From Patescibacteria group bacterium (GTDB taxonomy: Bacteria; Patescibacteriota; Patescibacteriia; Magasanikbacterales; JBBTQS01), in assembly GCA_038065555.1 (NCBI GenBank), contig JBBTQS010000003.1:26266-90265 (forward strand): a stretch of 64,000 nucleotides of DNA, written 5' to 3'. The notes below the pieces were generated by a model. That model saw nothing but the letters and a program-made list of their open reading frames with translations. It had not been told where the DNA came from and did no database searches. Shown here one piece after another: positions 5,919-64,000 of the stretch (the first letter of the stretch is position 1; every line of letters begins with the position of its first letter). The position numbers and the translations under genes were made by a program.

Positions 5919-6662
5919 ATGAAAATTCCTTCTGTACTTCTGCAAAGCCTTGGGCTTACTCCACTGCAAGCAGCCGTATACATCGCTGCACTCGAGCTCG
6001 GCCAATCCTCTATCCAAGACCTCTCACGCAAATCCGGCGTGAAGCGCACAAGTATCTACAACTTCATCACTGATCTGAAGACGCGAGGACTCATCACACA
6101 AACACGCAAGAAAAAACGACTCGTGTACAGCGCAGTCCACCCAGAGCAATTGCTCGAGATCGAAAAAACCCGTCTCACCGAACTCGAACGTCTGATGCCG
6201 GAGCTCACCGCGATCTACAACAAGTCCGAGTCAAAACCTCGCGTTACTTTCTATGAACGACTCGACGGCACCGAAGAAGTATACGCAGACATGCTTTCCG
6301 AGAAAAAACCGATCCTTGTCTACGAAGATCTAGAACACATGAAATCTGGCATGCGCCCTGGATTCTACAGCACGTGGCCAGGGGAACGCGCGCGACGAGG
6401 TATCCCACTCAAGTCTATCTCCCGTGATTCAGCAACGGCCCGCGAATTCACGAAGCACAACATCAAACTTCTACGCCAAACTAAATTCATGACTGCCCCT
6501 CCGCTCAAAACCGAGATCAACATCTACGGCGACAAGGTCGCGCTCATGAGTTTTCGCCAGGACGCGCCTTTTTGTGTGCTCATCGAAGATCGTGATATTG
6601 CACAGACCTTGCGCACGACATGGGAACAGCTATGGGAGCGTCTCGGACCAGTTGTTGGCTAA
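5919..6662 (+). CDS. TrmB-family transcriptional regulator (paralog 1)
   Basis: N-terminal winged HTH (LTPLQAAVYIAALELGQSSIQDLSRKSGVKRTSIYNFITDLKTRGLI) plus a TrmB-type C-terminal domain. Clear paralog of 9988-10776, 13303-14034, 25471-26229 and 62689-63423. Confidence 0.8.
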   Translation: MKIPSVLLQSLGLTPLQAAVYIAALELGQSSIQDLSRKSGVKRTSIYNFITDLKTRGLITQTRKKKRLVYSAVHPEQLLEIEKTRLTELERLMPELTAIYNKSESKPRVTFYERLDGTEEVYADMLSEKKPILVYEDLEHMKSGMRPGFYSTWPGERARRGIPLKSISRDSATAREFTKHNIKLLRQTKFMTAPPLKTEINIYGDKVALMSFRQDAPFCVLIEDRDIAQTLRTTWEQLWERLGPVVG

Positions 6663-6693
6663 GACATGAGTCTTCGGGGTACGATATCTCTCT

Positions 6694-7218
6694 ATGGTGC
6701 CCCAGCTCCCCACCCTCAACTACACCCTCTGCTTCTGCCTGCACCGTGGCGATATTCTATTGCTCCTGCGAGCAAAAGAACCGAACCTCAACCACTGGAA
6801 CGGCGTAGGCGGCAAAATTGAACCCGGTGAATCGCCGGCACAGTGCGCCACACGAGAAACCTGCGAAGAAACAGGCTTCGACCCCGCAGCCGCACAGCGC
6901 CGAGAGTTGGGCGTTGTGACCTGGCACCCCGCGGGCGCTGCACCAGAAGGCGGCATGCATGTCTTCCAATTCGCTTTTCCCGATAGTTGGCAGCGACCAT
7001 TCGACTCGCTCGATATGCGCGAAGGCAAACTTCAATGGCACCCACTTGCGTTTGCTATGGACTACAACAATCGAGCGATCGTAGAAAACATCCCGTACTT
7101 TTTCACTGCGATGCACAACGCTCCCGAACTGTTGTGGTACGACTTCGGATTTGATGCGCAGCATCGCATTGCAGAATATAGAGTAACGTCTGCTCCTCGT
7201 GCTATACTAAACACATAA
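6694..7218 (+). CDS. NUDIX hydrolase
   Basis: Nudix box GGKIEPGESPAQCATRETCEETG (Gx5Ex7REUxEExGU). Confidence 0.8.
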   Translation: MVPQLPTLNYTLCFCLHRGDILLLLRAKEPNLNHWNGVGGKIEPGESPAQCATRETCEETGFDPAAAQRRELGVVTWHPAGAAPEGGMHVFQFAFPDSWQRPFDSLDMREGKLQWHPLAFAMDYNNRAIVENIPYFFTAMHNAPELLWYDFGFDAQHRIAEYRVTSAPRAILNT

Positions 7219-7226
7219 TTTTTCCT

Positions 7227-8426
7227 ATGCACATACCATCTACGTCGATGATAGTGGTCGGTTCACTCACGGTTACGCTCATGGCCACCTCAATGGTCGC
7301 CATTGCTGCACCTGCTCCAGTCCTCAATCCTGTTCGCCCAGGCGAAGCACGCGTTCTAGACAAAGGACTCACCGTGAAGTCGTTCAAAGACGCTAACTAC
7401 AAAGGCAAATTCCCCGCACCAGAAGGTGTGGTGCTCCAAGGCACATACGGCGCAGACAAATACAAAGAGCCAACAGGATCTGGTACGTACAAGTTCCGCG
7501 TCATGACTGATGCGAAGCTCCCATTGGCATGCCTGGACAACTCGCGCATCATCATTGGCAGCAAGGGCAAGACGTATGATCGTGGTTGGTTCACCGGATA
7601 CGACATTGCGAAGTCCGATGCCGCGCAGATCATCCAAATCTACAACGACAAGCCACGCGGCGCTGGTGCAGGCAACAAATTCTTCGATGAAGGATTCCGC
7701 AAAGGATACGCGTTCAGCTTCAACGGCGGATTCGAGACTGCTGCACGCTACAACTGCCGCAAGCAGATGCAAGACGTCAAGCGTGTAGACGCAGACGGCT
7801 GGATCAAGTACGACAAAGGCAACGTAGCATTTCTCACCAAGCGCACACCGAGCATCGCATCCTTCGCACTCCCTGTGCTCCCCTATGCATCTCTTGACGA
7901 GCGCGCAAGTGGACTTCTCAAGATCCCTAACGCGTGGGTCGCAGGTCTGAGCAGCGTAACGCCAGAGTCTTCGATTGAAAAAGCAAATCCAAAGGCTGGT
8001 CGCGTCAACCTCTCACACATCGAAGCATTCGAAAGTGCTGACGCAGACGACCGGGCCATGACCACAACCCAGTTCGGCAACGACCTCTACGCAGGGATGA
8101 AGACACAATCCGAAGCAGCATTCGCAAAGTATCGCGATCGAATTTGCAACGTGAGCGAAGCCTCGATCGAGGACAAGACCTACGCTGGCCAGACCTACAC
8201 CCTCGTGACATTCTACCGATCGTGCACAGGCAAAGCAGTGAAGGAAGCTGAGTGGAAGCTCCTCGCATTTGCACTCACCAAGTCTCCATCAACGGGCAAT
8301 CTCGTAGGATTCTTCTTCTCCACTCCACATTCAATCAAGAAGGCAGGAGCAGACGAAGTTGATATGACGAAGTTCCCAAGCGTACCATTCATCGAACAGT
8401 TCCTCGGCAAAGTCGTGATCAAATAG
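7227..8426 (+). CDS. secreted hypothetical protein
   Basis: 399 aa. N-terminal hydrophobic signal (MHIPSTSMIVVGSLTVTLMATSMVAIAAPAP); no recognisable catalytic motif. Confidence 0.55.
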   Translation: MHIPSTSMIVVGSLTVTLMATSMVAIAAPAPVLNPVRPGEARVLDKGLTVKSFKDANYKGKFPAPEGVVLQGTYGADKYKEPTGSGTYKFRVMTDAKLPLACLDNSRIIIGSKGKTYDRGWFTGYDIAKSDAAQIIQIYNDKPRGAGAGNKFFDEGFRKGYAFSFNGGFETAARYNCRKQMQDVKRVDADGWIKYDKGNVAFLTKRTPSIASFALPVLPYASLDERASGLLKIPNAWVAGLSSVTPESSIEKANPKAGRVNLSHIEAFESADADDRAMTTTQFGNDLYAGMKTQSEAAFAKYRDRICNVSEASIEDKTYAGQTYTLVTFYRSCTGKAVKEAEWKLLAFALTKSPSTGNLVGFFFSTPHSIKKAGADEVDMTKFPSVPFIEQFLGKVVIK

Positions 8427-8519
8427 TCGCGACTCGAGACCAAATGCAAACGACCTGCAGTGGATATACCCTGCAGGTCGTATTGTTTGCGACGCGCTTT
8501 CACACGCCCACAGTTGCAA

Positions 8520-8903
8520 CTACTTGCAACTACTACACAACCCAGTGAGAACGAGATTGTGATCATTCACCGTGAACCCTTTCAACTTCGACACAGAGAT
8601 TTTGCATTCTACGCAGCGTGCCTCACGGCAACTGGTGCACACGGCGTGGTGATGGTGATCTTCGTGGCCGTGCAACTCATAATATTGCTCACCTTCGAAC
8701 ACGATGCTCGGGTGAATCATATCCAGCTCCTTGAGCAGTTGGAGTGTGCGATACACGGATACCGTATCAATAGGCTTGAGCGCCTTTGCAATCTGCGCAG
8801 CAGCAAAAATCCCATCGAGATTCTCGATGTACTCAATGATCTCACGACGCGGACCGGTGAGCTTTGCGCCAGACTCTCGAACATGTTCTGCGATAGATGC
8901 CAT
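8520..8903 (-). CDS. Fur-family metalloregulator (Fur/Zur/PerR-like)
   Basis: ATG at 8901-8903. HTH region, then HGHEDHHHHAVCTSC and CxxC...CSSC metal-site motifs typical of Fur proteins. The longer ORF in the track begins with GTG. Confidence 0.8.
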   Translation of the reverse strand: MASIAEHVRESGAKLTGPRREIIEYIENLDGIFAAAQIAKALKPIDTVSVYRTLQLLKELDMIHPSIVFEGEQYYELHGHEDHHHHAVCTSCREARCVECKISVSKLKGFTVNDHNLVLTGLCSSCK

Positions 8904-8919
8904 ATGGCGACAAGTATAC

Positions 8920-8945
8920 CGCGTGACGAGACTCGCGTCCACGCG
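8920..8945. promoter_or_regulatory. GC-rich inverted repeat between divergent Fur-family and VOC genes
   Basis: CGCGTGACG-agact-CGTC(C)ACGCG, sitting 17 bp upstream of the Fur start and 16 bp upstream of the VOC start. Confidence 0.3.
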
Positions 8946-8960
8946 ATATACTCATACTCT

Positions 8961-9479
8961 ATGAACACATCCTCCCCGACCTGGAGCAATACCCGCGCAG
9001 CAGCACAGATCTCGATACAAATATTCAACGACTTCGCGGATCGTCATGAGATGGCAAATCAGCTCCTCGCTGACCACATTGGATTCAAATGCGCCTCGAG
9101 TGAGGAATTCACATCGATGCGTGCGCTGCTCGAAGACGCTTCTGTCTATACATACCAATCCATCATCTCGGCTCGACGCATCGCGATTTGCAGACTACGT
9201 GAACCATTCCCAACTGCATGTGGCCCCGTACACTTCGTCGAACTCTCTGATCAGAAGCCAGACCTCAGTCAAACAAGTGGATTCGATCACATCGAAGTCT
9301 ATCCCGCAGACCACGACGTACAACGCGCAGTAACACTATTACAGTCACGAGGTGTCGAGATCGCGCAGTCGCACCGCCCACATCACAGCACATTCGACAC
9401 GCGACTCTCACCCACGTTCACTCTGCGCATCGAGCATGAGCCACTCATAGTGAAGATCAAAGACACAGAAATGCACTAG
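8961..9479 (+). CDS. VOC/glyoxalase-like family protein
   Basis: ATG at 8961. Beta-alpha-beta-beta-beta-like repeats with 'GFDHIEVYPADHD' resembling glyoxalase/dioxygenase metal-binding segments. The 5' part of the track ORF overlaps Fur on the opposite strand and is rejected. Confidence 0.4.
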   Translation: MNTSSPTWSNTRAAAQISIQIFNDFADRHEMANQLLADHIGFKCASSEEFTSMRALLEDASVYTYQSIISARRIAICRLREPFPTACGPVHFVELSDQKPDLSQTSGFDHIEVYPADHDVQRAVTLLQSRGVEIAQSHRPHHSTFDTRLSPTFTLRIEHEPLIVKIKDTEMH

Positions 9480-9541
9480 TTCCATTGACATTTTTCGCCA
9501 ATCTGCTACGCTCTGGACCACCACAGCCATTGGAGGCGTTC

Positions 9542-9922
9542 ATGAGCAAGACAGTTCAACCCAACAAGCGTTCCTACGACGAGAAAGCCGAAGGCGCACT
9601 GCACACTGCGAGAATGTGCGTAAAACGCAAAAGAGACGAGGGCCACACTGATCCAACAACAGCACTCAAGAACTTTCTGTACTACGCATGGCGCGCAGGC
9701 AGAAGCATTGAGAGCTTTGGCACAACGGACGCAGAACTGCGCGAGATCGCACGCACCTACGAAGTGAACACTGGCGACCGCATCTTGCGACGGCTCAGTG
9801 GCAAGGGCAGCTACAGTCCGAGACAACGCCACAACCTGATCGAGGACGCGCGACGGATCTTCGCCAACGCCGGACTCTCCCAAGCAGAAATCGACCAGCG
9901 ACTCCGACCGTACCCTCGATGA
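9542..9922 (+). CDS. hypothetical protein
   Basis: Second in-frame ATG (MSKTVQPNKRSYDEK...). Basic, soluble; no motif recognised. Followed by a strong terminator. Confidence 0.4.
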   Translation: MSKTVQPNKRSYDEKAEGALHTARMCVKRKRDEGHTDPTTALKNFLYYAWRAGRSIESFGTTDAELREIARTYEVNTGDRILRRLSGKGSYSPRQRHNLIEDARRIFANAGLSQAEIDQRLRPYPR

Positions 9923-9932
9923 CTGTTCGTAC

Positions 9933-9972
9933 AACACCCTACTGAGGATTTCAGTAGGGTGTTCTCATTTTG
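9933..9972. terminator. bidirectional rho-independent terminator
   Basis: 13-bp stem AACACCCTACTGA/TCAGTAGGGTGTT plus TCTCATTTTG, between the convergent genes 9542-9922 (+) and 9988-10776 (-). Confidence 0.6.
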
Positions 9973-9987
9973 TGACGCCGCACGTTG

Positions 9988-10776
9988 CTACCGCTTCTTG
10001 TAACTCACTGGCGTTGCAACATCCCACACAATCTCGAAGAGTGCACGAAGAATATTTGCTAGCACACTACTTTCGATAATAGCAGTCATGCGATTGGGGC
10101 GCTGTGGCAGCGCAATCACGACATTATTGTCATAGACCGTCAGCTCGCCACCAAATTGCATGAGCCCCTTCGCCTGATCCTTCGTCACCCATCGATACAC
10201 GGTATACGGAGACGGACGATACGTACGAATCCACTCACGTCCCTGCGGCGTGTCGAGCAGGAGGATTCGCTCTTTAATTTTTAGTTTGTTGCGATTGCGG
10301 TTGTACGAGCGCGCCCAATCCCACAACTCTGGATCTTGCCAGCACTCCACATCAGTCACAGAAATAATCTCGCCCGTGGCCTGCAATGATTCCTCGTACA
10401 GCCGCGTAACACCCTGCACACCTTCCTGATACCGAATCACTGGCTTTTCATTGTCCTTGTATAGCGCGACAAGATCTGGAAGTAATTGCTCCGCGCTCGC
10501 CACATTTCGCTCCCACTGATTTTTCTTGTTCTTCACGTACTGCAAGAAGCTGCGCGGATGTTCTGCTGTGTACTTGCGCTTCATTTCTGAACCACTAGTT
10601 CGTGTCACCAACCCCAGGAGCCCAAGACGTTCGAGAATAGAGTACCCAAGCGTGCGTGTGATCTGCGCCTTCTTTGTGATTTCAGTAACCGTAGCGGGCC
10701 CCAGTTCTAGGAGAGTGAGGTACACACATGCCTCGTTTTCTTCTAGGCCATAGGAGCGTAATGCAGTATGGAGCAT
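9988..10776 (-). CDS. TrmB-family transcriptional regulator (paralog 2)
   Basis: HTH 'ACVYLTLLELGPATVTEITKKAQITRTLGYSILERLGLLGLV' plus TrmB-like C-terminal domain. Confidence 0.8.
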   Translation of the reverse strand: MLHTALRSYGLEENEACVYLTLLELGPATVTEITKKAQITRTLGYSILERLGLLGLVTRTSGSEMKRKYTAEHPRSFLQYVKNKKNQWERNVASAEQLLPDLVALYKDNEKPVIRYQEGVQGVTRLYEESLQATGEIISVTDVECWQDPELWDWARSYNRNRNKLKIKERILLLDTPQGREWIRTYRPSPYTVYRWVTKDQAKGLMQFGGELTVYDNNVVIALPQRPNRMTAIIESSVLANILRALFEIVWDVATPVSYKKR

Positions 10777-10784
10777 AGAAATGC

Positions 10785-10813
10785 AGCATACTTCGTGGGA
10801 CTTTTTTTGTCAA
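10785..10813 (-). promoter_or_regulatory. sigma70-type promoter (TTGACA-17-TATGCT) for TrmB paralog 2, apparently leaderless
   Basis: On the minus strand: -35 TTGACA (10808-10813), 17-nt spacer, -10 TATGCT (10785-10790). The ATG at 10776 lies about 8 nt downstream of the -10. Confidence 0.4.
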
Positions 10814-10953
10814 AATGGATTTACAATTTTCATTATTTTGTTATTTTTTTGCTAAACACTGAATAGAAAAGTTATATATTTTGTCCAGCTGCATTTTCAA
10901 AAATGACGTATTTACTATGCTGGATGCGGACATGCCACAACAAGGAGAAGTGC

Positions 10954-11856
10954 ATGGGTAACTCGACATATAGCTCGATCATCGATCCCTCATTGTATTG
11001 CCGGATCATGGACGATCATTTCTGTCTCGCTGAGGCAGACGCGGCAGCGATCAGGTTCGTGGAATCATTTCGAGACAACCCGCACTGGAACGGGTACATC
11101 ATGGAGGGAGGGTCTGGCCCCGGACGATTCACGAATAAGCTACACGAGGCGGTGTCTGATGTCACCGTCATCGCAGTAGATCATGATGTCATGTACCAGG
11201 GCTACGCGCGAAATCACTGCAAGCATCGCAATCGTGTGCAGTACATTTTCGGAGATTGCACCAAGCCGCAGAGCTGGCTCTCTGTTCCACTCATCGTGCT
11301 GCAAGGTGTCTTCCACCACTTCCCCACCCAGGACGGGACGCGGGCTCGCGCGCTCCAGACGTTCCGATCCTTCTTGCCATCCGGTGGTCGACTCATCGTC
11401 AGCGACGAGTTTCTGGCTCCGTACGAAGACGAAGAGCAACGAATGTGCAACGCGATCCAGTGGTACAGCCATGTCATCGCACTCGCACAACCCGCGCTTG
11501 CCGTTGAGGAGGCCAAGACACTTCTCGACGATCTTCCGAAGCTCGCAGGACCCAAAACGCGTCACCAGATCAACCTGATCATCCAAACATCGGTCACCAT
11601 CAAGGAACTGGTGACCGATGGTCAACTCCTGGCGGCGCGTGACGCTTCCCTCCAACTCTATTCCGCGCTACTGCGCATGCGCCCCGCGCGCGCACCGCTT
11701 GATTGGACCATGTCACTCTCTCGCGGCGACGAGAAGTGCGACGTACGGCGGTTCCTAGAACTCGCCACACCGTACTTCAAGGTCGTCTCCAGCGAGTCCT
11801 TCGGACCCATGGAAACCTGCGGCGGCTTCGTGGTCTTCGAGTTCGAAGCCATTTAG
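10954..11856 (+). CDS. class I SAM-dependent methyltransferase
   Basis: Motif I-like 'IMEGGSGPGRF' and an acidic-loop 'VIAVDHD' Rossmann signature. Start taken at ATG 10954 (MGNSTY...). Confidence 0.6.
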   Translation: MGNSTYSSIIDPSLYCRIMDDHFCLAEADAAAIRFVESFRDNPHWNGYIMEGGSGPGRFTNKLHEAVSDVTVIAVDHDVMYQGYARNHCKHRNRVQYIFGDCTKPQSWLSVPLIVLQGVFHHFPTQDGTRARALQTFRSFLPSGGRLIVSDEFLAPYEDEEQRMCNAIQWYSHVIALAQPALAVEEAKTLLDDLPKLAGPKTRHQINLIIQTSVTIKELVTDGQLLAARDASLQLYSALLRMRPARAPLDWTMSLSRGDEKCDVRRFLELATPYFKVVSSESFGPMETCGGFVVFEFEAI

Positions 11857-11868
11857 CCAAAAACAACT

Positions 11869-11911
11869 CCACCCTGCACGACGTGAACATTGTGCAGGGT
11901 GGACTATTTTT
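11869..11911. terminator. rho-independent terminator (convergent genes)
   Basis: Stem CCACCCTGCAC/GTGCAGGGTGG followed by ACTATTTTTG. Confidence 0.6.
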
Positions 11912-11937
11912 GTAGGAAGTAATGTATCGAGAAGACA

Positions 11938-12744
11938 CTACACGGGTTCGAACTCCATGATCATCGGCAGATGATCAGACAATGGCAAATCTGGAACCTC
12001 GAATCTCGTCTCGCGTACACCACTGGTGACAAACGTATAATCTGCGAACTCCTGCCAACCCCACTTCCCAGAACCATACGTCGGATGGGCAATACGCATC
12101 TGCGTTCCGCGCGTCGTCGTAATTGCATATTCCTTCACAAGATCGCGATATCCTGCATCAACAAACATCTGCAACGACACCGTCCCAGGTAGCATATTGA
12201 AATCCCCCATCACAATCTTCTCCCCAGGTTGCGCCTGCATGAACGCCAATACACGACGCGATTGCTCCAACCGCTCTGGAGAATCCAACTTGTCATATGG
12301 CCCGCAGGTGCCATGGACATTTGCAATGGTGAGAAGCGTCCCGTTCACGTCGAACTGCACAGCAAACATATTACTTGGCACCGTCCCATAGTCCCCTGGA
12401 ATGAACCCGTTACGCGTACCGCAAATCAGTTGCTCTTCGGTTTTTAGCACGGTACGTGTCTTGCGAACAAATGTCGCACTGCCAGCAGTAATCGGTTCGA
12501 CAGTCGTCATTGTATGATCATAGTACTCTTGGACTGGAGCAAAATACGCATGGAAATCAGGCAGCGCTCCACACAACTCCTCGTATAGATTCGCGCGCGA
12601 CCCACTGCTCACCACTGGCCCAATCGGCGAATCCAATACTTCCTGAAAGCAAAACACATCTGTCGTTGGTGCATGCTCCCGCACAAACGCCATCAACGCA
12701 TCGAAGTAGCGACCACCCCAAATGTTGAACGAGATCATCTTCAT
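11938..12744 (-). CDS. endonuclease/exonuclease/phosphatase (EEP) family protein
   Basis: MKMISFNIWGG... N-terminus and C-terminal 'LSDHLPMIMEF' (SDH catalytic motif) are typical of the EEP fold. Confidence 0.75.
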   Translation of the reverse strand: MKMISFNIWGGRYFDALMAFVREHAPTTDVFCFQEVLDSPIGPVVSSGSRANLYEELCGALPDFHAYFAPVQEYYDHTMTTVEPITAGSATFVRKTRTVLKTEEQLICGTRNGFIPGDYGTVPSNMFAVQFDVNGTLLTIANVHGTCGPYDKLDSPERLEQSRRVLAFMQAQPGEKIVMGDFNMLPGTVSLQMFVDAGYRDLVKEYAITTTRGTQMRIAHPTYGSGKWGWQEFADYTFVTSGVRETRFEVPDLPLSDHLPMIMEFEPV

Positions 12745-12804
12745 ACACCTTGCTGTTTCAAATTTTCTTTAAGTCGATCCACTCTACCAAACACCCTGCA
12801 ACCG

Positions 12805-13275: not shown

Positions 13276-13302
13276 ACTCCAAGTATAGTCTCAAGAAAGC
13301 CG

Positions 13303-14034
13303 TCAAGCACGCTCCTGGCTCCCCCACGCGTGCTCAAACAACGCGCGTTGCATCTCCGCAATTGTCGCGCTCTCGATCACTACGACCACATAGTCGCCTG
13401 TGAATGAAATGAGGCACACCTTGGACTTCCACACGTACATCATCCCATGGAATTCCGGTCGACTCGGCACAATGCGAACCTGACGCAACTGCTGCTGACC
13501 GAGACGTTTGCGCTCCTGGGCCTTTGCAGAGTTTGGCAAGATCACACGAACAGGAATCTTCCGACGAACACGTTCTTCCACGAAATTCTCAAACTTCTCA
13601 ACTTCGCGAAAAATATCATCAGCAGCGCCAAACGACAGCAGCTCACTCGCCTCCTCAAGAATTTCCTCGAGTACCGTCGCAATTCCTGCTTTCCCTTCAT
13701 ACATGCGTACGCCTGGACGCTTGCGCGAGCGACTATGCATGGCTTCGAGTTCTGGCAATGATTCCTTGAGCAACGACACCCGTTGCTCCATGCGCGCAAG
13801 CACGCGACGCGGCTCCTCGGCACTGAAGTATCGTGCCTTCTTTTTCAAAAACGTGGTCACCATTCCCTTTGCACGCAGCGTTTCTAGTACTTCATACGCG
13901 GTTGACCGAGCCACCGCTGCCTTCTCTGCGATGCGCTGCACCGAAGCGGAACCGAGCTCTAACGCCGCCTTGTAGAGCGCCGTTTCCTTGGTGTTGAGAC
14001 CACAGGTTCTAAGTACTTCTTCAAGATTTGCCAT
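13303..14034 (-). CDS. TrmB-family transcriptional regulator (paralog 3)
   Basis: HTH 'ETALYKAALELGSASVQRIAEKAAVARSTAYEVLETLRAKGMV'; same C-terminal architecture as the other paralogs. Confidence 0.8.
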   Translation of the reverse strand: MANLEEVLRTCGLNTKETALYKAALELGSASVQRIAEKAAVARSTAYEVLETLRAKGMVTTFLKKKARYFSAEEPRRVLARMEQRVSLLKESLPELEAMHSRSRKRPGVRMYEGKAGIATVLEEILEEASELLSFGAADDIFREVEKFENFVEERVRRKIPVRVILPNSAKAQERKRLGQQQLRQVRIVPSRPEFHGMMYVWKSKVCLISFTGDYVVVVIESATIAEMQRALFEHAWGSQERA

Positions 14035-14211
14035 ATTTTGTCGGTAAAAGCGACAACGTTTTTATATCATTTTTGTCAATAAATGTAAAGTATTTTAGAT
14101 TTTCCGTCGGAAAGCCTGTCATTTATTCGCAGACCAGCTATAGTCACCGCACCTTACAAGGGCCAGACAGAGAAGTTCTGCCTGTGACACTGGTGAAAAT
14201 GGAGTCGAATC

Positions 14212-15583: not shown

Positions 15584-15592
15584 ATATCAGAT

Positions 15593-24935: not shown

Positions 24936-25190
24936 CAAAAACAAACGCCGACTGCTTGCGCATCGGCGTGTGTAGAGCGTTTTGTCGTGTGAGCATCCGA
25001 CCACGTAACCACCACGAAACATGGTACGAATGCTCGCGCGACAATCCCTACGAATTATCACGTCTCCCCGTTCTTTTCGATCTCTCAAGGCACTACTTTA
25101 GCACATCTACACTTTTTGTCAAGTAACAAGTTGACAAAATACGCCCATGCAACGGCTCGTATTTTTCATCTGTTTTTGCGCAAAACATCC

Positions 25191-25219
25191 TTGACGCACC
25201 CCCTGGCCCATGCTAGGCT
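25191..25219 (+). promoter_or_regulatory. sigma70-like promoter TTGACG-17-(TGc)TAGGCT with no downstream protein gene
   Basis: -35 at 25191-25196; extended -10 TGCTAGGCT at 25211-25219. The transcript would start near 25226 inside a 535-bp ORF-poor convergent spacer. Confidence 0.3.
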
Positions 25220-25225
25220 GAAATT

Positions 25226-25472
25226 GCCCGCTACATGGACCTTGGGCAAGACCAGATTTTGCTCCTCCAGAGCAGAATGTCTCGCGTAGCAAGAGGGAGA
25301 TGCATTGCAATGGGGAACGCATAGCAATTTTCCCTGTCCACGTTGTACCACAACCCAACCGGCAAAGCCGCGCGGAGTGAAGTGACCGAGCACTCGTGCC
25401 CAGTACCTTCACTTCCGCGCGGCTAACCGACTTCCAGAATGCTGTCACCTACGTGATGGTTTTTCTTATTTT
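25226..25472 (+). ncRNA. candidate small RNA of unknown class
   Basis: Promoter above; a 15-bp bulged hairpin at 25368-25423; terminal small hairpin GUCAC-cuac-GUGAU plus GGUUUUUCUUAUUUU at 25444-25472. I found no match to tmRNA, RNase P or SRP signature motifs. Confidence 0.25.
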
Positions 25473-26229
25473 AACTCTTTCGACCTGATTCTTTGCGCTG
25501 CGCCTTTGCTCCGACAAATGCGAAATGAAAGAGCGTGCGCAATGTTTGTGCGAGTCGCTTGCTCTCAATAATTGCCGAATACATTTTGCCCTCGAATGTA
25601 ACCAAATTGATTTTGTCTCCGTACACACCGATGTGTGCCTTGAACTCGCCGTCTTTGCCCGCCACATAGTAGCGCTCTCCACTATCACTACTCCCACTTG
25701 TACCACCATAGAGTCCACGCATCCGCACGGAACGCTTGCGTAGGATGTTACGCAGCGGCTGCAAATCTTGTGGTGTGAGCACGGTGAAGAGTGCGTCGGC
25801 ATCAGCGATCTCGTCCATTTCCTTGAAGTCCGTGTTCGCCCAATCTTCCATGATTGCACGTACACCTTCCTTGCCTTCGAAGAGGCGAACAATAGGCTTG
25901 TCCCCGCCAGCCTGCAGTGTCAGCTCTGGGAGCATCTGTTCGAGATCAGCAATCTTGCCAGCAACGTCACTATGGTACCGATGCGCGTACGCAATGAGCT
26001 TGTTAGGTTGTTCTGCTGCAAAATAGCGCTTCTTGCCACGCATCACATTGGTGAACAACCCGCGCTCTGTGAGCGCGTCCACTGCGGTATACACTGCCTG
26101 GCGCGACAGATGCGTTGCCTTCGTGAAATCCAGAATAGTGCCAGCTCCACGAGTGAGGCCAGCCACATAGACTTTGATTTCACTGTCCAATAGGCCCAGT
26201 GAGCGCAAAAGCGGAGCAAGATCTTTCAT
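25471..26229 (-). CDS. TrmB-family transcriptional regulator (paralog 4)
   Basis: Start ATG 26227-26229 (MKDLAPLLRSLGLLDSEIKVYVAGLTRGAGTILDFTKATHLSRQAVYTAVDALTERGLF). TrmB C-terminal domain. Confidence 0.8.
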   Translation of the reverse strand: MKDLAPLLRSLGLLDSEIKVYVAGLTRGAGTILDFTKATHLSRQAVYTAVDALTERGLFTNVMRGKKRYFAAEQPNKLIAYAHRYHSDVAGKIADLEQMLPELTLQAGGDKPIVRLFEGKEGVRAIMEDWANTDFKEMDEIADADALFTVLTPQDLQPLRNILRKRSVRMRGLYGGTSGSSDSGERYYVAGKDGEFKAHIGVYGDKINLVTFEGKMYSAIIESKRLAQTLRTLFHFAFVGAKAQRKESGRKS

Positions 26230-26340
26230 ATTTAGTACGTTTTTACAAGTGTAGCACATGGGGATAAAAACGCCAGAATAACAAAAAGACCCACCCGGAT
26301 GGTGAGGTCGCCAAATAATTCAAAGCGATCTCGCACTCAA

Positions 26341-26649
26341 TCACACTTCGTGATTGTTCAACATCTTTGCGATGTCATGGCGATGATCATCGGTGATCTG
26401 CATATGACGCAATAGCTGCTGGTTGATACCAGTTACTTTGGCTTCCAGACTTTCCAATCCATCACTCAAACGATCCTCGAGCTTGCTCAACCGAGTATTG
26501 GTCTCACAAAATCGATCCTCAACACGCTCAGCATATGCGTGGACGAATATAGACAATTCTGAAATTTGTTCAGTTATCTTATCAAATTTTTGATCAATGG
26601 TGAGTCGGACAGTGGATTGCATACTATAAATGATGGTGGTTAGTCCCAT
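26341..26649 (-). CDS. hypothetical coiled-coil protein
   Basis: ATG 26647-26649 (MGLTTIIYSMQSTVRL...), heptad-like, last gene of the fba operon. The longer track ORF overlaps fba and is rejected. Confidence 0.35.
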   Translation of the reverse strand: MGLTTIIYSMQSTVRLTIDQKFDKITEQISELSIFVHAYAERVEDRFCETNTRLSKLEDRLSDGLESLEAKVTGINQQLLRHMQITDDHRHDIAKMLNNHEV

Positions 26650-56566: not shown

Positions 56567-56600
56567 AAAAAGCGACGTGCCTCATGGCACGTCGCTTTTT
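56567..56600. terminator. bidirectional rho-independent terminator after hppA
   Basis: AAAAGCGACGTGCC-tcat-GGCACGTCGCTTTTT. Confidence 0.7.
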
Positions 56601-56609
56601 AATTATGCA

Positions 56610-57806: not shown

Positions 57807-57807
57807 A

Positions 57808-58041
57808 CTATTTTTGCATTAGCGAAGTAACAATATCTCGTTCTTCTTGCAAGATTTTCTGCACCTCTTCGACATCATTTGATTCGATTGCCGTGAACCT
57901 TCTCACGAAGAAGTCAACAAGTACTTTTGCAGCCGCAGGATCTTTGGTCATCATTTCAACAAACTGTCGTTTTTCTTCACCTTGAAAAACGCTCATACAA
58001 TGTCCAATGACCTGATTTGCTATCAGCGTTGATTGTTGCAT
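57808..58041 (-). CDS. small hypothetical protein (77 aa)
   Basis: Stop is 1 nt before the start of the HExxH membrane-protein gene, so translationally coupled. Confidence 0.4.
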   Translation of the reverse strand: MQQSTLIANQVIGHCMSVFQGEEKRQFVEMMTKDPAAAKVLVDFFVRRFTAIESNDVEEVQKILQEERDIVTSLMQK

Positions 58042-58165
58042 ATTTCTTGTTTCGGCATTTTGTAGGAAAAGTATAATACAGAAGCGAAGGAAAACGCGAA
58101 TTTAACTAATCAAAAATGTTCTAGGTTCCTCACTGCGCACGCACTCCAATGAGCCCCTGCGGGCG

Positions 58166-58194
58166 TTGACACATCTCCCCATTTTCTCTACACT
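58166..58194 (+). promoter_or_regulatory. sigma70 promoter for tig: TTGACA-17-TACACT
   Basis: -35 at 58166-58171 and -10 at 58189-58194; tig ATG at 58222. Confidence 0.5.
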
Positions 58195-58221
58195 AACCGC
58201 GTTATCTATTCACGGAAAGCT

Positions 58222-59502
58222 ATGCAAATTGAGGTCAAAAATCTCCAAAAGTCGCAAATTGAAATCACCGTCGTGCTCTCTGACGCTGAAATGCGCCCAC
58301 ACGTTGAGCGCGCTGCGCGTCACATTTCTGAGCACCGCGATATCAAGGGCTTCCGCCGCGGTCACGCGCCGTACGAGAAGGTAAAGGCCGAGGTAGGCGA
58401 AATGGCAATCTACGAAGCTGCCCTCGAGCGCGCAGTACAAAGCAGCTACTACGCTGCTGTGAAGGAGAAGAGTCTCAACACCATTGGCATGCCACAAGTG
58501 AATGTGAAGAAGCTAGCCCCAGGCAATGACTGCGAATTCACTGCAACAGTCTCCGTGCTCCCAAAGGTAGAACTCCCTGACTTCTCGAAGATCAGTGTTG
58601 CGAAGAAAGATGTAACCGTTGAAGACAAACAAGTCGACGAAACCATGGAGTCGCTGCGCAAAATGCGCGGCAACGAAGTAGCGAAGTCCGGTCCAGCAGG
58701 CAAAGAAGACAAGGTTGTTGTAGACATGGATCTCTCTGTAGACAATGTTCCAGTCGAAGGCGGCCAGACCAAGGATCACGGCGTATACTTGAGCGAAGAT
58801 TATTACGTACCAGGACTCCCAGCAGAATTGCTCGGTCTCAAGAAGGATGACGAGAAGAAATTCACACTCACCTTCCCCAAGGAACACTACCAGAAGCATC
58901 TCGCAGGCAAGGACGTGCAGTTCTCCGTGAAAGTGAAGGATGTATTTGAGCGCCAGTTCCCTGAATTGAACGAAGAATTCGCTAAGGGATTTGGTCAGGA
59001 GTCGATGGAGAAATTGCTCGAGCTTCTCAAGACCAACTTGCAAAACGAAGCAACGCAGAAAGAAGAAGAGCGCCAGGAAGCAGAACTTCTCGAGCAGATC
59101 ATCTCGAAGTCAACATTTGAAGACATCCCAGAAGTACTTCTCGACGCAGAGAAGCGCCGCATCTACGGCGAGCTCACTCAGCGTGTAGAATCACAAGGAC
59201 TCACGATGGAGGACTACCTCGCATCTGTAGGCAAGACACCAGAAGAATTCGGCGCAGGCTACGCAGAGCAAGCAGAGAAGCGCGTGAAGTCTACGCTCGC
59301 ACTTCGGGCATATATCGAACGCGAAAAGATCGAGGTCTCCCCAGAAGAAGTGCAGAAGGAAATTGATTCAATGAAGGAGCACTACAAGAAGGATCCAGAA
59401 GTCTTGCGCCAACTCGACACCATCGACACGCGCGAGTCACTCGCTGGCATGCTGCGCAACCGCAAGGCATTGCGCGAGCTCAAAGAGAAGCTCATCAAGT
59501 AA
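58222..59502 (+). CDS. tig: trigger factor
   Basis: Ribosome-binding 'GFRRGHAP' signature near the N-terminus; a central PPIase-like domain; C-terminal helical arms. Confidence 0.9.
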   Translation: MQIEVKNLQKSQIEITVVLSDAEMRPHVERAARHISEHRDIKGFRRGHAPYEKVKAEVGEMAIYEAALERAVQSSYYAAVKEKSLNTIGMPQVNVKKLAPGNDCEFTATVSVLPKVELPDFSKISVAKKDVTVEDKQVDETMESLRKMRGNEVAKSGPAGKEDKVVVDMDLSVDNVPVEGGQTKDHGVYLSEDYYVPGLPAELLGLKKDDEKKFTLTFPKEHYQKHLAGKDVQFSVKVKDVFERQFPELNEEFAKGFGQESMEKLLELLKTNLQNEATQKEEERQEAELLEQIISKSTFEDIPEVLLDAEKRRIYGELTQRVESQGLTMEDYLASVGKTPEEFGAGYAEQAEKRVKSTLALRAYIEREKIEVSPEEVQKEIDSMKEHYKKDPEVLRQLDTIDTRESLAGMLRNRKALRELKEKLIK

Positions 59503-59512
59503 GCTCAATAAC

Positions 59513-59544
59513 AAAATCAGCCCGCTGTGGCTGATTTTGTTATT
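59513..59544 (+). terminator. rho-independent terminator after tig
   Basis: AATCAGCC-cgctgt-GGCTGATT followed by TTGTTATTG. Confidence 0.65.
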
Positions 59545-59546
59545 GT

Positions 59547-60296
59547 CTACGCGTTGTCTAGAGCAAGAGTAACCGAACGTTCGAGTGCGAAGAACACATC
59601 AGATTGCTTGAGCGCATGCCGACGCGGACGTGCAAATGGTACATCAAATCGCGCCGCGATTTTTGCTGGCTGCGGACTCAATACGAGTACTTCATCTGCG
59701 AGGAACACTGCCTCGCCGACATCATGCGTTACGAAGACAATAGTCATGCGCAGATCATCGCACAGCTCCGCAAGGAACTCCTGCATCTGGGAACGCGTTT
59801 GACTATCGAGTGCACCAAACGGTTCATCCATAAGCAGCACGCGTGGCTCAGTCACAAGTGCACGAGCTAACGCAACACGCTGTTGCATCCCTCCAGAAAG
59901 TGCATTCGGATAATACGATGCAAAAGCCGTGAGATGCGTGCGCTCGAGATATGTCGCCACACGCTCGGCAATCACTGCGTCGTCCATGTTCTGCAACCGC
60001 AAACCAAATGCAATGTTCTCGTACACTGTGAGCCACGGGAACAATGTATTCTCCTGGAACACCATGCCCCGCGATACATCTGGGCCGGTGACGGACTCTC
60101 CTCCAACCACCACAGTACCTGTGTATTCCTGATCAAGCCCTGCGATGATTCGCAAGAGCGTTGATTTGCCGCAACCGCTTGGCCCGACAATCGCTACGAA
60201 CTTTCCCTCAGCAATGGTGAGCGAAAAATCATGGATTACGTCGACACGTTTGCCACCGTGCAATTGGGTTTTTGTAATTGATGTGAGACTAAGCAT
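59547..60296 (-). CDS. ABC transporter ATP-binding protein (NitT/TauT-type)
   Basis: ATG 60294-60296. Walker A 'GPSGCGKST', signature 'LSGGMQQRV' and Walker B 'LLMDEPFGALD'. Confidence 0.85.
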   Translation of the reverse strand: MLSLTSITKTQLHGGKRVDVIHDFSLTIAEGKFVAIVGPSGCGKSTLLRIIAGLDQEYTGTVVVGGESVTGPDVSRGMVFQENTLFPWLTVYENIAFGLRLQNMDDAVIAERVATYLERTHLTAFASYYPNALSGGMQQRVALARALVTEPRVLLMDEPFGALDSQTRSQMQEFLAELCDDLRMTIVFVTHDVGEAVFLADEVLVLSPQPAKIAARFDVPFARPRRHALKQSDVFFALERSVTLALDNA

Positions 60297-61044
60297 GTGA
60301 TTTCTCTGACCAAGGGAAAAGCGCGCGATACGACCAACGAAACGCAGCATCAGTGAACAACCCGAGAACACCAATCACAATAATGACCGCGAAGATTTGA
60401 TCCGTGCGCAGGAATCGCTGTGATGCAATGATCACAGAACCAAGTCCTACCGACGCACCAACCATTTCTGCCGCTGTCACGAAGGTCCATGATGAACCGA
60501 TCATGATGCGACTCGCATCCCAAATTGCTGGTAGTGCTCCAGGCAATGCGACGCGCGAAATGACCTGTATCCGACTCGCACCCAACGTGCGCGCAACACT
60601 AGACAACACACGACGCTGATTACCGATCGTATCTGCAATGAGCACGGTGAGATATGGCGCAGTGGCAATGAAAATAATTACGATCTTTTCGAGCTCACCA
60701 ACACCGAACCACACGATCGCAAGTGGAATGAACACCACAGGTGGAACATACCGCAAGCCAGACAACAATGGTTCGATGAGTGCAGCGCATGTGCGCGATG
60801 CACCCAGCGCCACACCAACCGGAAGCGCGATGACCACAGACAATACAAACCCCAACGCCACACGTCCCACACTCGCCGCAATATCCATGAGCAATGCGTC
60901 GTTCATGAACAAAGATACGAGTGCCTGAGCGACAAGCATTGGCCCAGGCAGGAAGAGCGGCGATACCACAGAGCTCCACGATACAATCGCCCACGTCGCA
61001 ACAAAAAGGAGCAGCGCGGTGGTGGTTAAGATTTTTGTACGCAT
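60289..61044 (-). CDS. ABC transporter permease (SsuC/TauC-type)
   Basis: Six TM helices with an EAA-like loop 'ASRTCAALIEPLLSGLRYVP'. Confidence 0.8.
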   Translation of the reverse strand: MRTKILTTTALLLFVATWAIVSWSSVVSPLFLPGPMLVAQALVSLFMNDALLMDIAASVGRVALGFVLSVVIALPVGVALGASRTCAALIEPLLSGLRYVPPVVFIPLAIVWFGVGELEKIVIIFIATAPYLTVLIADTIGNQRRVLSSVARTLGASRIQVISRVALPGALPAIWDASRIMIGSSWTFVTAAEMVGASVGLGSVIIASQRFLRTDQIFAVIIVIGVLGLFTDAAFRWSYRALFPWSEKSHA

Positions 61045-61065
61045 ACTGCTCCTTTCGTCGATGAT

Positions 61066-62037
61066 TTAGAGAAGTTCTTCGATAATGGAGGTGTCAACAA
61101 TAGACTTCGCGTCGAGTCTCGTCTTCGTGAGACCGAGATCGAACCAGAGCGTACTCGCCTTGTCCAAGAGATTCACTGCTGAGTATTCACCTTTGGTAAG
61201 CACTTCGGCATTGTCCTGCAATGACATCCAACGGAACGTTGGAATTTGATCGCGAACATCCTGTTCCGAGATTGCGAGACCTTTTGCGATGACAGCATAG
61301 CTCTCATCTGGATTAGTAATGATGTATTCACGTGTTGCAAAAATCGAACGCATCAACGCGACAATCTCTGCACGACGCTCCTGGAGCACTTCTTCGCGGA
61401 CAATCACGATGTCGAGAATCGGTGATGTCTTCGTACTCGCAATAACATGACCACCCTTGCGCTCACTCGCCTTCGAAAGCCATGGCTCCCACGTCACAGC
61501 AGCGTCCACTTTTCCAGCAACAAATGCAGCACCAGCATCAGACGCAATCATATTCACCGTCTGCACGTCCTTCGTACTCATTCCCTGCTTCTCGAGCATC
61601 AGTGCAAGGAAAAAATGTGACGGAGAACCTTCTTCATACGCAACCTTTTTCCCGCGCAAATCCGCGAGTGAGTTGATTCCTTCTGCAGCAATGATGCCAT
61701 CAGCACCGAGGCTCGCATCATATGAACCAACAACTTTTACTTTCACACCCGCATCATGCAAAGTCGCAACTGTCTCAGACGTGAGCACAAGCACATCAAT
61801 CTTGCCGCTCGCGAACAATTGCTTGCCCACTGCGCCGTCATCGTAGTTAGTGTGCACGACCTTGAGGCCGTTTGCCTCGTAGATTCCTTTTTCCTGCGCA
61901 ACGTTAAAGATACCGTTGCCGATCCAAGGATTGAGACCGATGCGTAACGGTTGTGCTGCGGTGTTGTCTTTCGCAAACCACACACCCAAGCCGACAACGA
62001 CCACGAGAGCCGCAATAATCACAGCAATTTTTTTCAT
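61066..62037 (-). CDS. ABC transporter substrate-binding protein (NMT1/SsuA-like)
   Basis: Signal/anchor 'MKKIAVIIAALVVVVGLGVWF' then a periplasmic-binding fold. First gene of the three-gene transporter operon. Confidence 0.75.
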   Translation of the reverse strand: MKKIAVIIAALVVVVGLGVWFAKDNTAAQPLRIGLNPWIGNGIFNVAQEKGIYEANGLKVVHTNYDDGAVGKQLFASGKIDVLVLTSETVATLHDAGVKVKVVGSYDASLGADGIIAAEGINSLADLRGKKVAYEEGSPSHFFLALMLEKQGMSTKDVQTVNMIASDAGAAFVAGKVDAAVTWEPWLSKASERKGGHVIASTKTSPILDIVIVREEVLQERRAEIVALMRSIFATREYIITNPDESYAVIAKGLAISEQDVRDQIPTFRWMSLQDNAEVLTKGEYSAVNLLDKASTLWFDLGLTKTRLDAKSIVDTSIIEELL

Positions 62038-62144
62038 ACACTCATTATAGGATTTATTTTCGACGAACCATCTTGGTTCTCCAAAAACATACCCCGTAAG
62101 AAGGTTTGAACAGCGCCGTCCGTTATGGTCAGCGCTGTCCGTGT

Positions 62145-62504
62145 TTATCCTCTTTTGTAGCCACGAGCAACCATGTCAGTCTCGTTGAGGTACTCCTCCA
62201 ATTCATCAAGCAGCACGTTGATCCCACCACACGGACCAGCGAACTCCCCGTCGCGCCTAATGAACTCCCTGAGCGCGGTCGGCCTGGACTCATCATTCAC
62301 ACCGAGGAATTTGCGATAGTAGAGATGCGCCCCGATTTGTCCAACGGCGTAGGCGAGCCTCACCACGAGATAGTGAGGCACACGACCTCCACGATGCTCC
62401 GGGCAGTTCTCGTTCAGACACAGACCGAGATCCTCCATCTCCGGGCCGCCGTCATCAATTAGCAACCTGCTGATCAACTCTTTACGCGTCCTGCTCATGC
62501 TCAT
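62145..62504 (-). CDS. hypothetical protein
   Basis: ATG 62502-62504 preceded by AAGGAGAA (spacer 4 nt). 119 aa, Cys-containing (CLNENCPEH... CGG). Confidence 0.45.
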   Translation of the reverse strand: MSMSRTRKELISRLLIDDGGPEMEDLGLCLNENCPEHRGGRVPHYLVVRLAYAVGQIGAHLYYRKFLGVNDESRPTALREFIRRDGEFAGPCGGINVLLDELEEYLNETDMVARGYKRG

Positions 62505-62636
62505 GTTGTTCTCCTTGTCGTTTGGTTGTCGTTCCGTTGCACAGTATGACATAATCACACTTTTTAACAACGGAAATATAGTCCAAAAAATCACAAATAT
62601 CTATATTTAGACAAAGGTAAGCAATTCAAAGTGCTA

Positions 62637-62680
62637 TTTTTGTCAGAATCATTGACAAAAATAGTCCAATGTCGTATACT
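62637..62680 (+). promoter_or_regulatory. promoter with operator-like palindrome for TrmB paralog 5
   Basis: Perfect IR TTTTTGTCA-gaatcat-TGACAAAAA (62637-62661) overlapping -35 TTGACA (62652-62657). 17-nt spacer, then -10 TATACT (62675-62680). ATG at 62689, so effectively leaderless. Confidence 0.5.
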
Positions 62681-62688
62681 TTGTTGGT

Positions 62689-63423
62689 ATGCAAACCCCA
62701 GACCTCTCTCCTATCGGTGTTGGTGACAAAGCCACATCCATCTACCTCACCGCCTTGTCTCTGGGCACTGCCAGCGTCCAACAAATCGCTACTAAAGCTG
62801 GGATCAAGCGTCCGACCGCCTATCTCCACATTGAAGAACTACTTCGAGAAAATCTTCTCGAGCGCATCCGCATTGGCAAAAAGGATTTTTATCGTGCGTG
62901 CGATCCGCAGCAACTCAAAAAACGCGCCGAGACTGCGCTTACGCACATCAACACGATTCTCCCCGAACTCCAGCAACTCCACGCAACTGGTGGCGCACGT
63001 CCAACTGTTCGAATTTTTGAAGGCGAAGTTGGACTCAAGGAAATCTATGCACAACTACAACACGCCAACAGCATTCGCTTCATCTCCGACCTCGCTGCAA
63101 CAGAATCACTCTTTCCCAAATCTGTTAACGACATTGCAGCTGGCATTGCGGAACAGCAAATTCGTACACGTGAGCTGATTGCGAATACTCCAGAAACCAA
63201 ACGCGCATCAAAACGATTCGCAGCCATTGCAGGCAAAACCTACACCTCGCGAGTTTTCGCACATGGAGTAATCAAAAATGACTCCGCAATCTTCGGCAAC
63301 ACGGTCGCGTTCTTCCGCATCAACGAACACAATCTTTTTGTAATCGTCATCGAAGATGCAACAATCGCTGAGACAATGAAAACACTTTTCGATCACGCCT
63401 GGGAACAAGCAACAACGTTCTAA
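62689..63423 (+). CDS. TrmB-family transcriptional regulator (paralog 5)
   Basis: HTH 'ATSIYLTALSLGTASVQQIATKAGIKRPTAYLHIEELLRENLL'; TrmB C-terminal domain. Confidence 0.8.
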   Translation: MQTPDLSPIGVGDKATSIYLTALSLGTASVQQIATKAGIKRPTAYLHIEELLRENLLERIRIGKKDFYRACDPQQLKKRAETALTHINTILPELQQLHATGGARPTVRIFEGEVGLKEIYAQLQHANSIRFISDLAATESLFPKSVNDIAAGIAEQQIRTRELIANTPETKRASKRFAAIAGKTYTSRVFAHGVIKNDSAIFGNTVAFFRINEHNLFVIVIEDATIAETMKTLFDHAWEQATTF

Positions 63424-64000
63424 ATCCGAGCCTTCGGATCCTGCGCCAAATACTTCCACAGCTGACCAAAAATAACACGCTGACACTGCGCAAGTTCGCG
63501 CGACACTATGCGAATCGCATACTGCTCGCGCCACGATACAATGAGCACAGTATCATTATAAATAATGATTTCAGGCGTGAATTGATCTGCAACGTCTGGC
63601 AACACCATCGCCTCGCGCATCTCCTGCTTGTTGTGCGAAAATTGTTTCAAGTTCTCAGCATTGCGCGGAAAAATACCACGACCCAGAATCCCCGCCTTCA
63701 CGCGCCGCGCATAATATTCTGGAAAAAAATTCGGCAACGCCTCGTGCATCGTCTCGAAATTCGCATACGCGTGATATACATCCTTCGCGTTGAGCGTATC
63801 CTCATACGCCTCACGCATTCCCTTCTCACCTTCAAAAAATTCCATCTTCGGTTTTTCTGGTCGACGCAGCTGCAATAGCGACGCCAATTCAGGCAGCATC
63901 TCGCGCACCTTCTCCTCCTGCCGTGCAATCTTGTTCTGCACCTCACGCTTTTCATTTTCCAAATACGACAACAGCGACCGTGGATCAGACGCATGGAAAA
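63420..64000 (-). CDS. TrmB-family regulator (paralog 6), C-terminal part; N-terminus beyond the window edge
   Basis: Aligns with the post-HTH region of the other paralogs (...FEGEKGMREAYEDTL...; ...IIYNDTVLIVSWREQYAIRIVSRELAQ...). Convergent with paralog 5 and overlaps it by 4 nt. Confidence 0.6.
   Translation of the reverse strand, partial: FHASDPRSLLSYLENEKREVQNKIARQEEKVREMLPELASLLQLRRPEKPKMEFFEGEKGMREAYEDTLNAKDVYHAYANFETMHEALPNFFPEYYARRVKAGILGRGIFPRNAENLKQFSHNKQEMREAMVLPDVADQFTPEIIIYNDTVLIVSWREQYAIRIVSRELAQCQRVIFGQLWKYLAQDPKARI

Follow-up and report, generated by a model that had tools for sequence, protein, structure and literature searches.

The stretch analyzed here, hereafter the window, comprises 64,000 nucleotides of contig JBBTQS010000003.1 from a Patescibacteria metagenome-assembled genome (MAG; assembly GCA_038065555.1, positions 26,266 to 90,265 of the forward strand). 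It carries six genes for proteins of the TrmB family, which we number copies 1 to 6 in the order of their positions. We consider it probable that the six are ancient paralogs from a bacterial TrmB branch that extends across the Patescibacteria and that they act as sequence-specific, autoregulated dimeric repressors built like TrmBL2 of the archaeal Thermococcales. This reading is carried by the end-to-end match of the six proteins to TrmBL2, by the closer similarity of each copy to relatives in other metagenomes than to the paralogs in the window, and by operator-like inverted repeats that lie at the promoters of copies 1, 3, and 5 and recur upstream of orthologs of copies 1 and 5.

Patescibacteria constitute a large fraction of the bacteria in groundwater, have genomes smaller than 1 Mb, and include few cultured members, and their gene regulation is essentially uncharted. 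The locus described here holds many old copies of one family that is known mainly from archaea, and the 17-bp palindromes defined for three named proteins give a concrete prediction whose testing requires no culture of the organism.

Family membership and predicted architecture

An earlier note, made from the DNA sequence alone, had reported six TrmB-family paralogs in this stretch. The observation is real, correctly placed, and right in its family assignment: all six open reading frames (ORFs) are present, and the TrmB helix-turn-helix (HTH) model PF01978 matches each of the five complete proteins at 31.7 to 54.7 bits, against a Pfam gathering cutoff of 25.6 bits (Table 1). The part of copy 6 that lies inside the window matches no Pfam model and can be aligned with the last 190 residues of the other five. 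On a matching contig (L006 10732-11514), where the gene is whole and reaches about 200 bp beyond the window edge, copy 6 encodes 260 aa and has a PF01978 match. The start of copy 4 is ambiguous, as the position used by NCBI (26229) yields 252 aa and that chosen by other gene callers (26259) yields 262 aa. A hidden Markov model (HMM) built from the six paralogs and scanned against the window in six frames recovered exactly these six genes, with E values of 1e-103 to 2e-69. No seventh copy was found in the window, where the next best fragment had an E value of 1.6, and the similarity within the family is therefore far beyond chance. The paralogs are 243 to 262 aa long and align over their whole length at 22 to 31% pairwise identity; NCBI gives all six the product name "helix-turn-helix domain-containing protein." The same proteins also occur on a contig from Hainich groundwater (well H41, 0.2-µm filter).

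The predicted architecture is of the TrmBL2 type, consisting of a winged HTH, a long helix, and a single noncatalytic PLD-like domain, without the sugar-binding subdomain of TrmB. This assignment follows from profile alignments and from structure modeling. A profile of the six copies matched the solved structures of TrmBL2 from end to end (profile positions 11-248 against residues 16-263; E value of 3e-6), whereas only the HTH aligned with full-length TrmB. The AlphaFold2 model of copy 1, built from a 47-sequence alignment with a mean pLDDT of 92.7, shows the wing of the winged HTH leading directly into a single long helix (residues 75-101), followed by an alpha/beta domain; the long helix aligns with the corresponding region of TrmBL2. 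Foldseek searches of the PDB with this model returned TrmBL2 (E value of 1e-13) and TrmB (E value of 1e-11) at the top, with an identity to TrmBL2 of only 16-17%, followed by PLD-fold proteins that match the C-terminal domain alone.

The earlier note had also credited the proteins with a C-terminal sensor domain, of which one half is present. The fold is that of the first effector subdomain, which is PLD-like, and the sugar-binding half is absent: no copy matches the Pfam model TrmB_C/Regulator_TrmB (PF11495), even at an E value of ≤0.1, and in all copies the chain ends with the PLD-like domain, for a total length of 243-262 aa compared to approximately 340 aa for TrmB. The NCBIfam equivalog models for TrmB and TrmBL1 score 16-44 bits against cutoffs of 500-650, and their matches span only model positions ∼7-183 of 338-341, i.e., the first half. 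At the DNA-binding end, the profile alignment places a tyrosine equivalent to Y50 of TrmB in the recognition helix of all six copies, in the segments RTSIY, RTLGY, RSTAY, RQAVY, RPTAY, and RTSCY (copies 1 to 6, respectively). In Pyrococcus furiosus TrmB, Y50 serves DNA recognition (PMC4158304).

Inverted repeats at the promoters of family genes

A 17-bp inverted repeat, TGWC-N9-GWCA, emerged from a comparison of the sequences preceding copy-1 orthologs. In the window together with the related loci, this motif occurs within 100 nt upstream of 34 of the 61 distinct family genes but only 7 of the 462 control ORFs (Fisher P of 8e-30), with the caveat that the 34 genes are mostly copy-1 orthologs, which are phylogenetically nonindependent. 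The window contains nine matches, compared to ∼7 expected by chance, and three of the nine are located no more than 100 nt upstream of one of the six genes (binomial P of 7e-5). These three sites belong to copies 1, 3, and 5 (Table 1) and carry extended perfect arms of 6, 6, and 12 bp, respectively.

The site of copy 1 is the best represented among orthologs. A proximal site is located 18-34 nt upstream of the start codon in 28 distinct copy-1 orthologs, with the consensus TGWCTAAAAWWAMGTCA, and its half-sites are fixed while the surrounding intergenic sequence diverges. The W positions are noncomplementary in 12 of the 28 proximal sites, which is more readily explained by a protein dimer reading the site than by a hairpin. 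The distal, degenerate site of copy 1 is located between copy 1 and the divergently oriented gene for a cupin-like 122-aa protein and is the sole other match in the window at ≤2 mismatches; a second site is likewise seen in several copy-1 orthologs, at about −96 to −100. The palindrome of copy 3 is directly downstream of an extended −10 element (TGATATAAA). To test the operator prediction for copy 5, we fetched an ortholog from an unrelated sample (L074; 62% identity), which retains TTTTGTCA-N7-TGACAAAA overlapping its −35 box, although spacer and flanks differ from those in the window. In all three genes, the site thus overlaps the predicted promoter or immediately follows it, and each protein would be expected to repress its own transcription.

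When the extended, paralog-specific motifs were used as regulon probes, the matches in the window were limited to the genes' own promoters or to chance-level occurrences in coding regions. Among the family genes, the motif was present only where the residue two positions before the recognition tyrosine is Ser or Thr (34/54) and in none of the seven genes with other residues; the independent lineages are too few for this to count as evidence.

Table 1. Positions of the six TrmB-family genes and of their promoter-associated features in the window
Feature	Position	Strand	Protein or sequence	Score or placement
Copy 1	5919..6662	+	247 aa, MEK7648066	PF01978, 54.4 bits
Copy 2	9988..10776	-	262 aa, MEK7648072	PF01978, 54.7 bits
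Copy 3	13303..14034	-	243 aa, MEK7648076	PF01978, 45.1 bits
Copy 4	25471..26229	-	252 aa, MEK7648090	PF01978, 31.7 bits
Copy 5	62689..63423	+	244 aa, MEK7648124	PF01978, 33.5 bits
Copy 6	63420..64000 (window edge)	-	C-terminal 192 residues, MEK7648125	HMM score, 229 bits
Copy 1 proximal palindrome	5897..5913		TGTCTA-aatac-TAGACA	Starts 22 nt before ATG, downstream of predicted promoter
Copy 1 distal degenerate site	5819..5835		AGTCTATATTTTAGGCA, 2 mismatches	78 bp upstream of proximal site
Copy 1 predicted sigma-70-type promoter	5853..5881	+	TTTACA-17-TAAATT	Consensus scan, 9/12
Copy 3 palindrome	14038..14056		TTGTCG-N7-CGACAA, core TGTC-N9-GACA	Starts 22 nt before ATG
Copy 5 palindrome	62634..62664		CTATTTTTGTCA-gaatcat-TGACAAAAATAG	12-bp perfect arms, overlaps −35 of TTGACA-17-TATACT
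Copy 2 predicted promoter	10813-10785	-	TTGACA-17-TATGCT	

Age, spread, and density of the family

The best matches to proteins outside the window reach 75% identity for copy 1, 54% for copy 2, 45% for copy 3, 50-59% for copy 4, 62% for copy 5, and 48% for copy 6. Relatives in other Patescibacteria metagenomes, at 40-75% identity, are closer to each copy than any paralog in the window (22-31%), and the six are thus old, separately conserved lineages; the old expansion proposed in the earlier note agrees with these values. Copy-1 orthologs at 50-75% identity are found in many Patescibacteria contigs. In an exhaustive HMMER search, the six-paralog profile matched 18,482 clusters (50% identity) at an E value of ≤1e-3 and 3,201 clusters at ≤1e-30. 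The named relatives are nearly all Patescibacteria and include Kaiserbacteria, Uhrbacteria, Magasanikbacteria, Doudnabacteria, Berkelbacteria, and "Saccharibacteria" MAGs. Some contigs with close orthologs (L015, L016, and L019) and two proteins (P0110 and P0350), at 50-59% identity, are labeled Gammaproteobacteria, Bdellovibrionales, Micavibrio, or Methylomirabilis, which probably reflects binning errors. One of these contigs, L016, has four family genes in 13.8 kb.

The family accounts for 6 of 60 consecutive NCBI proteins and for 6 of the ∼70 genes in the window. No further copies are present in the ∼9.6 kb upstream or the ∼9.4 kb downstream of the window, giving six copies in ∼83 kb of the genome. 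For comparison, 57 related loci from other genomes and metagenomes contain 15 additional family genes in 509 kb, or ∼0.29 per 10 kb, a density that is biased upward by clustering and comes from a set anchored on copy-1 orthologs and hence biased toward that copy. The window is approximately two to three times denser than this average neighborhood. The presence of 15 extra copies in the related loci indicates that multiple copies are normal in the phylum and no peculiarity of this genome. Thus, of the unusual paralog density emphasized in the earlier note, the locally high value stands, while the possession of extra copies is general among related Patescibacteria loci. Taken at face value, the anchored loci extrapolate to roughly 10-25 copies in a 0.9-Mb genome.

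Adjacent pairs of family genes are frequent in the related loci. The members of such pairs are 40-600 bp apart and often convergent (L018, L023, L031/L032, and L057), like copies 5 and 6. The pairing may reflect functional coupling, through heterodimers or mutual regulation, or plain tandem duplication.

A larger form of the protein was also observed, as 27 of the 150 best-ranked family representatives are 412-1079 aa long (P0121, P0125, P0128, P0130, P0134, and others). These proteins possess one N-terminal winged HTH, the helix, and a PLD-like module, followed by 2-6 more tandem PLD-like domains of ∼135 aa each; P0121 has seven PLD-like domains in 1061 aa. Because the HTH occurs only once, the long forms are not the product of read-through between adjacent genes. 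We know of no description of an architecture in which one HTH is combined with tandem PLD-like domains.

In a search of the literature in one library, no paper paired TrmB with Patescibacteria or the candidate phyla radiation. The family is abundant in the Patescibacteria yet undescribed there, while the TrmBL2 architecture itself is already known in bacteria (Maruyama et al.).

Proposed regulation and alternative readings

Under the reading that we favor, a homodimer of each protein would bind a 17-bp inverted repeat, with the long helix forming the dimer coiled coil, as it does in TrmB and TrmBL2. Copies 1, 3, and 5 would read the core TGTC-N9-GACA together with paralog-specific flanking bases, and each would repress its own transcription and that of the genes cotranscribed with it, namely the NUDIX/YecM run in the case of copy 1 and the peptidase/phosphatase run in the case of copy 3 (see below). 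The PLD-like domain may serve for oligomerization or may be the part that responds to a ligand; the NUDIX gene beside copy 1 hints at ligands derived from nucleotides. Copies 2, 4, and 6 have different recognition helices and would presumably bind different sites.

Several observations weigh against this scheme. No inverted repeat of the family type was found upstream of copies 2, 4, and 6. The enrichment upstream of family genes is affected by the nonindependence of the copy-1 orthologs noted above. At copy 5, half of the palindrome is the −35 hexamer itself, and at copy 1, the site sits where a ribosome-binding site would be expected, so that it might conceivably function in the mRNA. The protein most similar in structure, TrmBL2, is an abundant, filament-forming archaeal protein whose DNA binding is for the most part not sequence specific. 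Finally, the orthologs offer little by way of conserved context: the only recurrent neighbors of copy-1 orthologs are more family members and small, unrelated membrane proteins, and the sugar-gene context of copy 4 is absent in the four copy-4 orthologs examined. What is retained across orthologs is the gene with its own operator-like site and not the surroundings (copies 1 and 4 were checked), so that any target beyond the regulator itself is putative.

The likeness to TrmBL2 (TK0471/PF0496; PDB 5bpd, 5box, and 5bqt) suggests another possibility, in which the six are nucleoid-associated, chromatin-like proteins that coat DNA with scant regard to its sequence, silence transcription globally, and perhaps replace bacterial nucleoid proteins missing from a reduced genome. 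TrmBL2 is the closest match both in structure and in end-to-end sequence comparison, has the same length (∼250-264 aa) and the same order of winged HTH, long helix, and single PLD-like domain, lacks the sugar-binding subdomain, and has been described as a chromosomal protein and global repressor (PMC3031468); moreover, all six proteins are basic (pI 8.9-9.5). We nevertheless consider such a role unlikely. The window encodes six paralogs with diverged recognition helices in 64 kb, whereas the Thermococcales have one highly conserved TrmBL2, which binds coding and intergenic DNA broadly (PMC4158304); here, specific and conserved palindromes at the genes' own promoters are the predicted binding sites. 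Identity to the archaeal protein is no higher than the 16-17% seen in the fold matches, and the present host is bacterial. Copy 1 is also missing from a closely related strain, which would be unexpected of a core chromatin protein. The two groups differ further in that TrmBL2 contains PF11495 according to Maruyama et al. (Pfam 24; PMC3031468), a domain that the proteins described here do not match.

Sugar-sensing regulators of sugar uptake and central carbon metabolism, such as TrmB and TrmBL1/Tgr of Pyrococcus and Thermococcus (PDB 3qph and 2f5t), share the PF01978 winged HTH and the recognition tyrosine with the six proteins, and a divergence of 22-30% among paralogs within one genome is known for that group as well (PMC4158304). 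The resemblance extends to DNA. The Thermococcales glycolytic motif (TGM) of these archaea, which is read by TrmBL1/Tgr, is TATCAC-N5-GTGATA, spans 17 bp, and is situated downstream of the promoter when repressing (PMC4158304), so that the core TGTC-N9-GACA has the same span and placement and an outer tetranucleotide that is one base apart (TATC compared to TGTC). A sugar-sensing role would also accord with the position of copy 4 directly after genes for transketolase, a PfkB kinase, and FBP aldolase, and with the automatic JGI annotation of many orthologs as "sugar-specific transcriptional regulator TrmB." It has little probability in our judgment, however, as the proteins are ∼80-90 residues shorter than TrmB and TrmBL1 and lack the C-terminal subdomain (∼70-90 residues) that binds the sugar, with no PF11495 match and with equivalog scores far below the cutoffs, and as the link to sugar genes is not conserved in the four copy-4 orthologs. 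A TGM-like palindrome (CAATCAC-gaagt-GTGATTG, with the arms AATCAC-N5-GTGATT; 26338-26356) is located at the 3′ end of a 102-aa gene, 127 nt upstream of copy 4. It was set aside as an operator candidate because it is a single occurrence at chance level, with 2 matches in comparison to 3 expected at ≤1 mismatch.

It is very improbable that the PLD-like domain works as an HKD nuclease or phosphodiesterase and that the proteins are HTH-guided enzymes, for example of defense systems or mobile elements, instead of regulators. The catalytic motif HxK(x)4D is absent, as neither the alignment of 47 members nor that of the six paralogs shows a conserved His or Lys at any invariant or near-invariant position of the C-terminal domain, and TrmB and TrmBL2 share the same noncatalytic fold. 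PADLOC detected only weak similarity to Csa3/CasR at the level of the winged HTH and matched no defense-system model, and the neighboring genes are housekeeping or metabolic ones. MreA of Methanosarcina and OxsR of Haloferax, two single-domain regulators of the TrmB family, likewise have the PF01978 DNA-binding domain and no sugar sensor (PMC3419521 and PMC9426492). These two proteins consist of the winged HTH only, whereas the proteins in the window retain the coiled-coil helix and the PLD-like domain.

The earlier note had suggested a diversified TrmB repertoire as the main layer of transcriptional control in this organism. A broader, tentative proposal may be made, although we hold it to be less likely true than false: that the short, TrmBL2-like family is the dominant transcription-factor family of the Patescibacteria, with approximately ten to a few tens of diverged copies per <1-Mb genome, and that its shared, TGM-related grammar TGWC-N9-GWCA forms the regulatory backbone of these ultrasmall episymbionts. 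Were the family indeed the phylum's main class of regulators, regulons could be read directly from thousands of uncultured genomes by way of this grammar. Otherwise, the six would be ordinary autoregulated repressors that some pipelines label slightly too specifically as "sugar-specific."

Gene neighborhoods and the remainder of the window

Copy 1 heads a same-strand run that continues with a NUDIX gene, a 392-aa ORF, a YecM-like gene, and a 126-aa ORF, and it is divergent from the gene for the cupin-like 122-aa protein and a gene for an 89-aa membrane protein. In a related strain (ERZ27247837, contig k141_1240671; L002 14087-14229), a 1.6-kb block corresponding to window positions 5029-6662 is absent. 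The missing block consists of copy 1 and the two small divergent genes, which therefore behave as a strain-variable cassette. On the same contig, a FUR-family gene is inserted where the YecM-like gene is truncated.

Copy 3 likewise heads a same-strand run, being followed by a prepilin-peptidase-like gene (Peptidase_A24) and an Exo_endo_phos gene. Copy 4 comes last, after a split transketolase, a PfkB kinase, a class II FBP aldolase, and the 102-aa ORF. Copies 5 and 6 are convergent, with a 4-bp overlap at their stop codons, and are adjoined by an ABC transporter. The earlier note had described the copies as lying next to small genes of unknown function or genes of sugar and central metabolism; the latter adjacency applies to copy 4 but to none of the other copies, and it is not shared by the four copy-4 orthologs.

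Between copy 4 and a SpoU methylase gene, 535 bp (24936-25470) are free of genes. This gap contains a long GC-rich hairpin directly 3′ of the copy-4 stop codon and a perfect palindrome with 9-bp arms at 25114-25139, TTTTGTCAA-N8-TTGACAAAA, which overlaps a minus-strand promoter (TTGACA-16-TAAAGT). A terminator-like hairpin is located ∼150 nt beyond the palindrome and promoter. Copy-4 orthologs similarly precede 0.3-1.8 kb without a called gene, and in one of them (L070), TTGTCAAG-N6-CTTGACAA is found ∼300 bp downstream. The palindrome in the gap could be a candidate target operator belonging to a small RNA or ORF, or it could merely be two back-to-back −35 boxes. Searches with Rfam across the window identified a tRNA-Gly only and nothing credible in the gap.

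The region upstream of copy 5 varies in length. In a Hainich contig (L006; 9747-10000, compared to window positions 62038-62688), 397 bp found in the window and in L005 are missing. The difference falls between the gene for the binding protein of the ABC transporter and copy 5, and the 397-bp stretch includes a 119-aa ORF for which calls exist in L005 and L007 only. Both the longer and the shorter version retain the copy-5 palindrome.

The remainder of the window is ordinary core genome and includes rpoB, rpoC, ftsK, recA, ssb, rpsF, ruvC, yebC, and genes for an H+-pyrophosphatase and trigger factor. Besides the six copies, the regulator-like genes called in the window are limited to those for a YebC/TACO1 homolog and an HTH_25 protein. 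An rnpA-rpmH-dnaA-dnaN cluster (L006 14011-17562) places rnpA ∼4 kb and dnaN ∼6.5 kb past the window end, and the GC skew is negative in all 4-kb bins of the window. Together, these features are consistent with the location of the window on one replication arm beside the origin.

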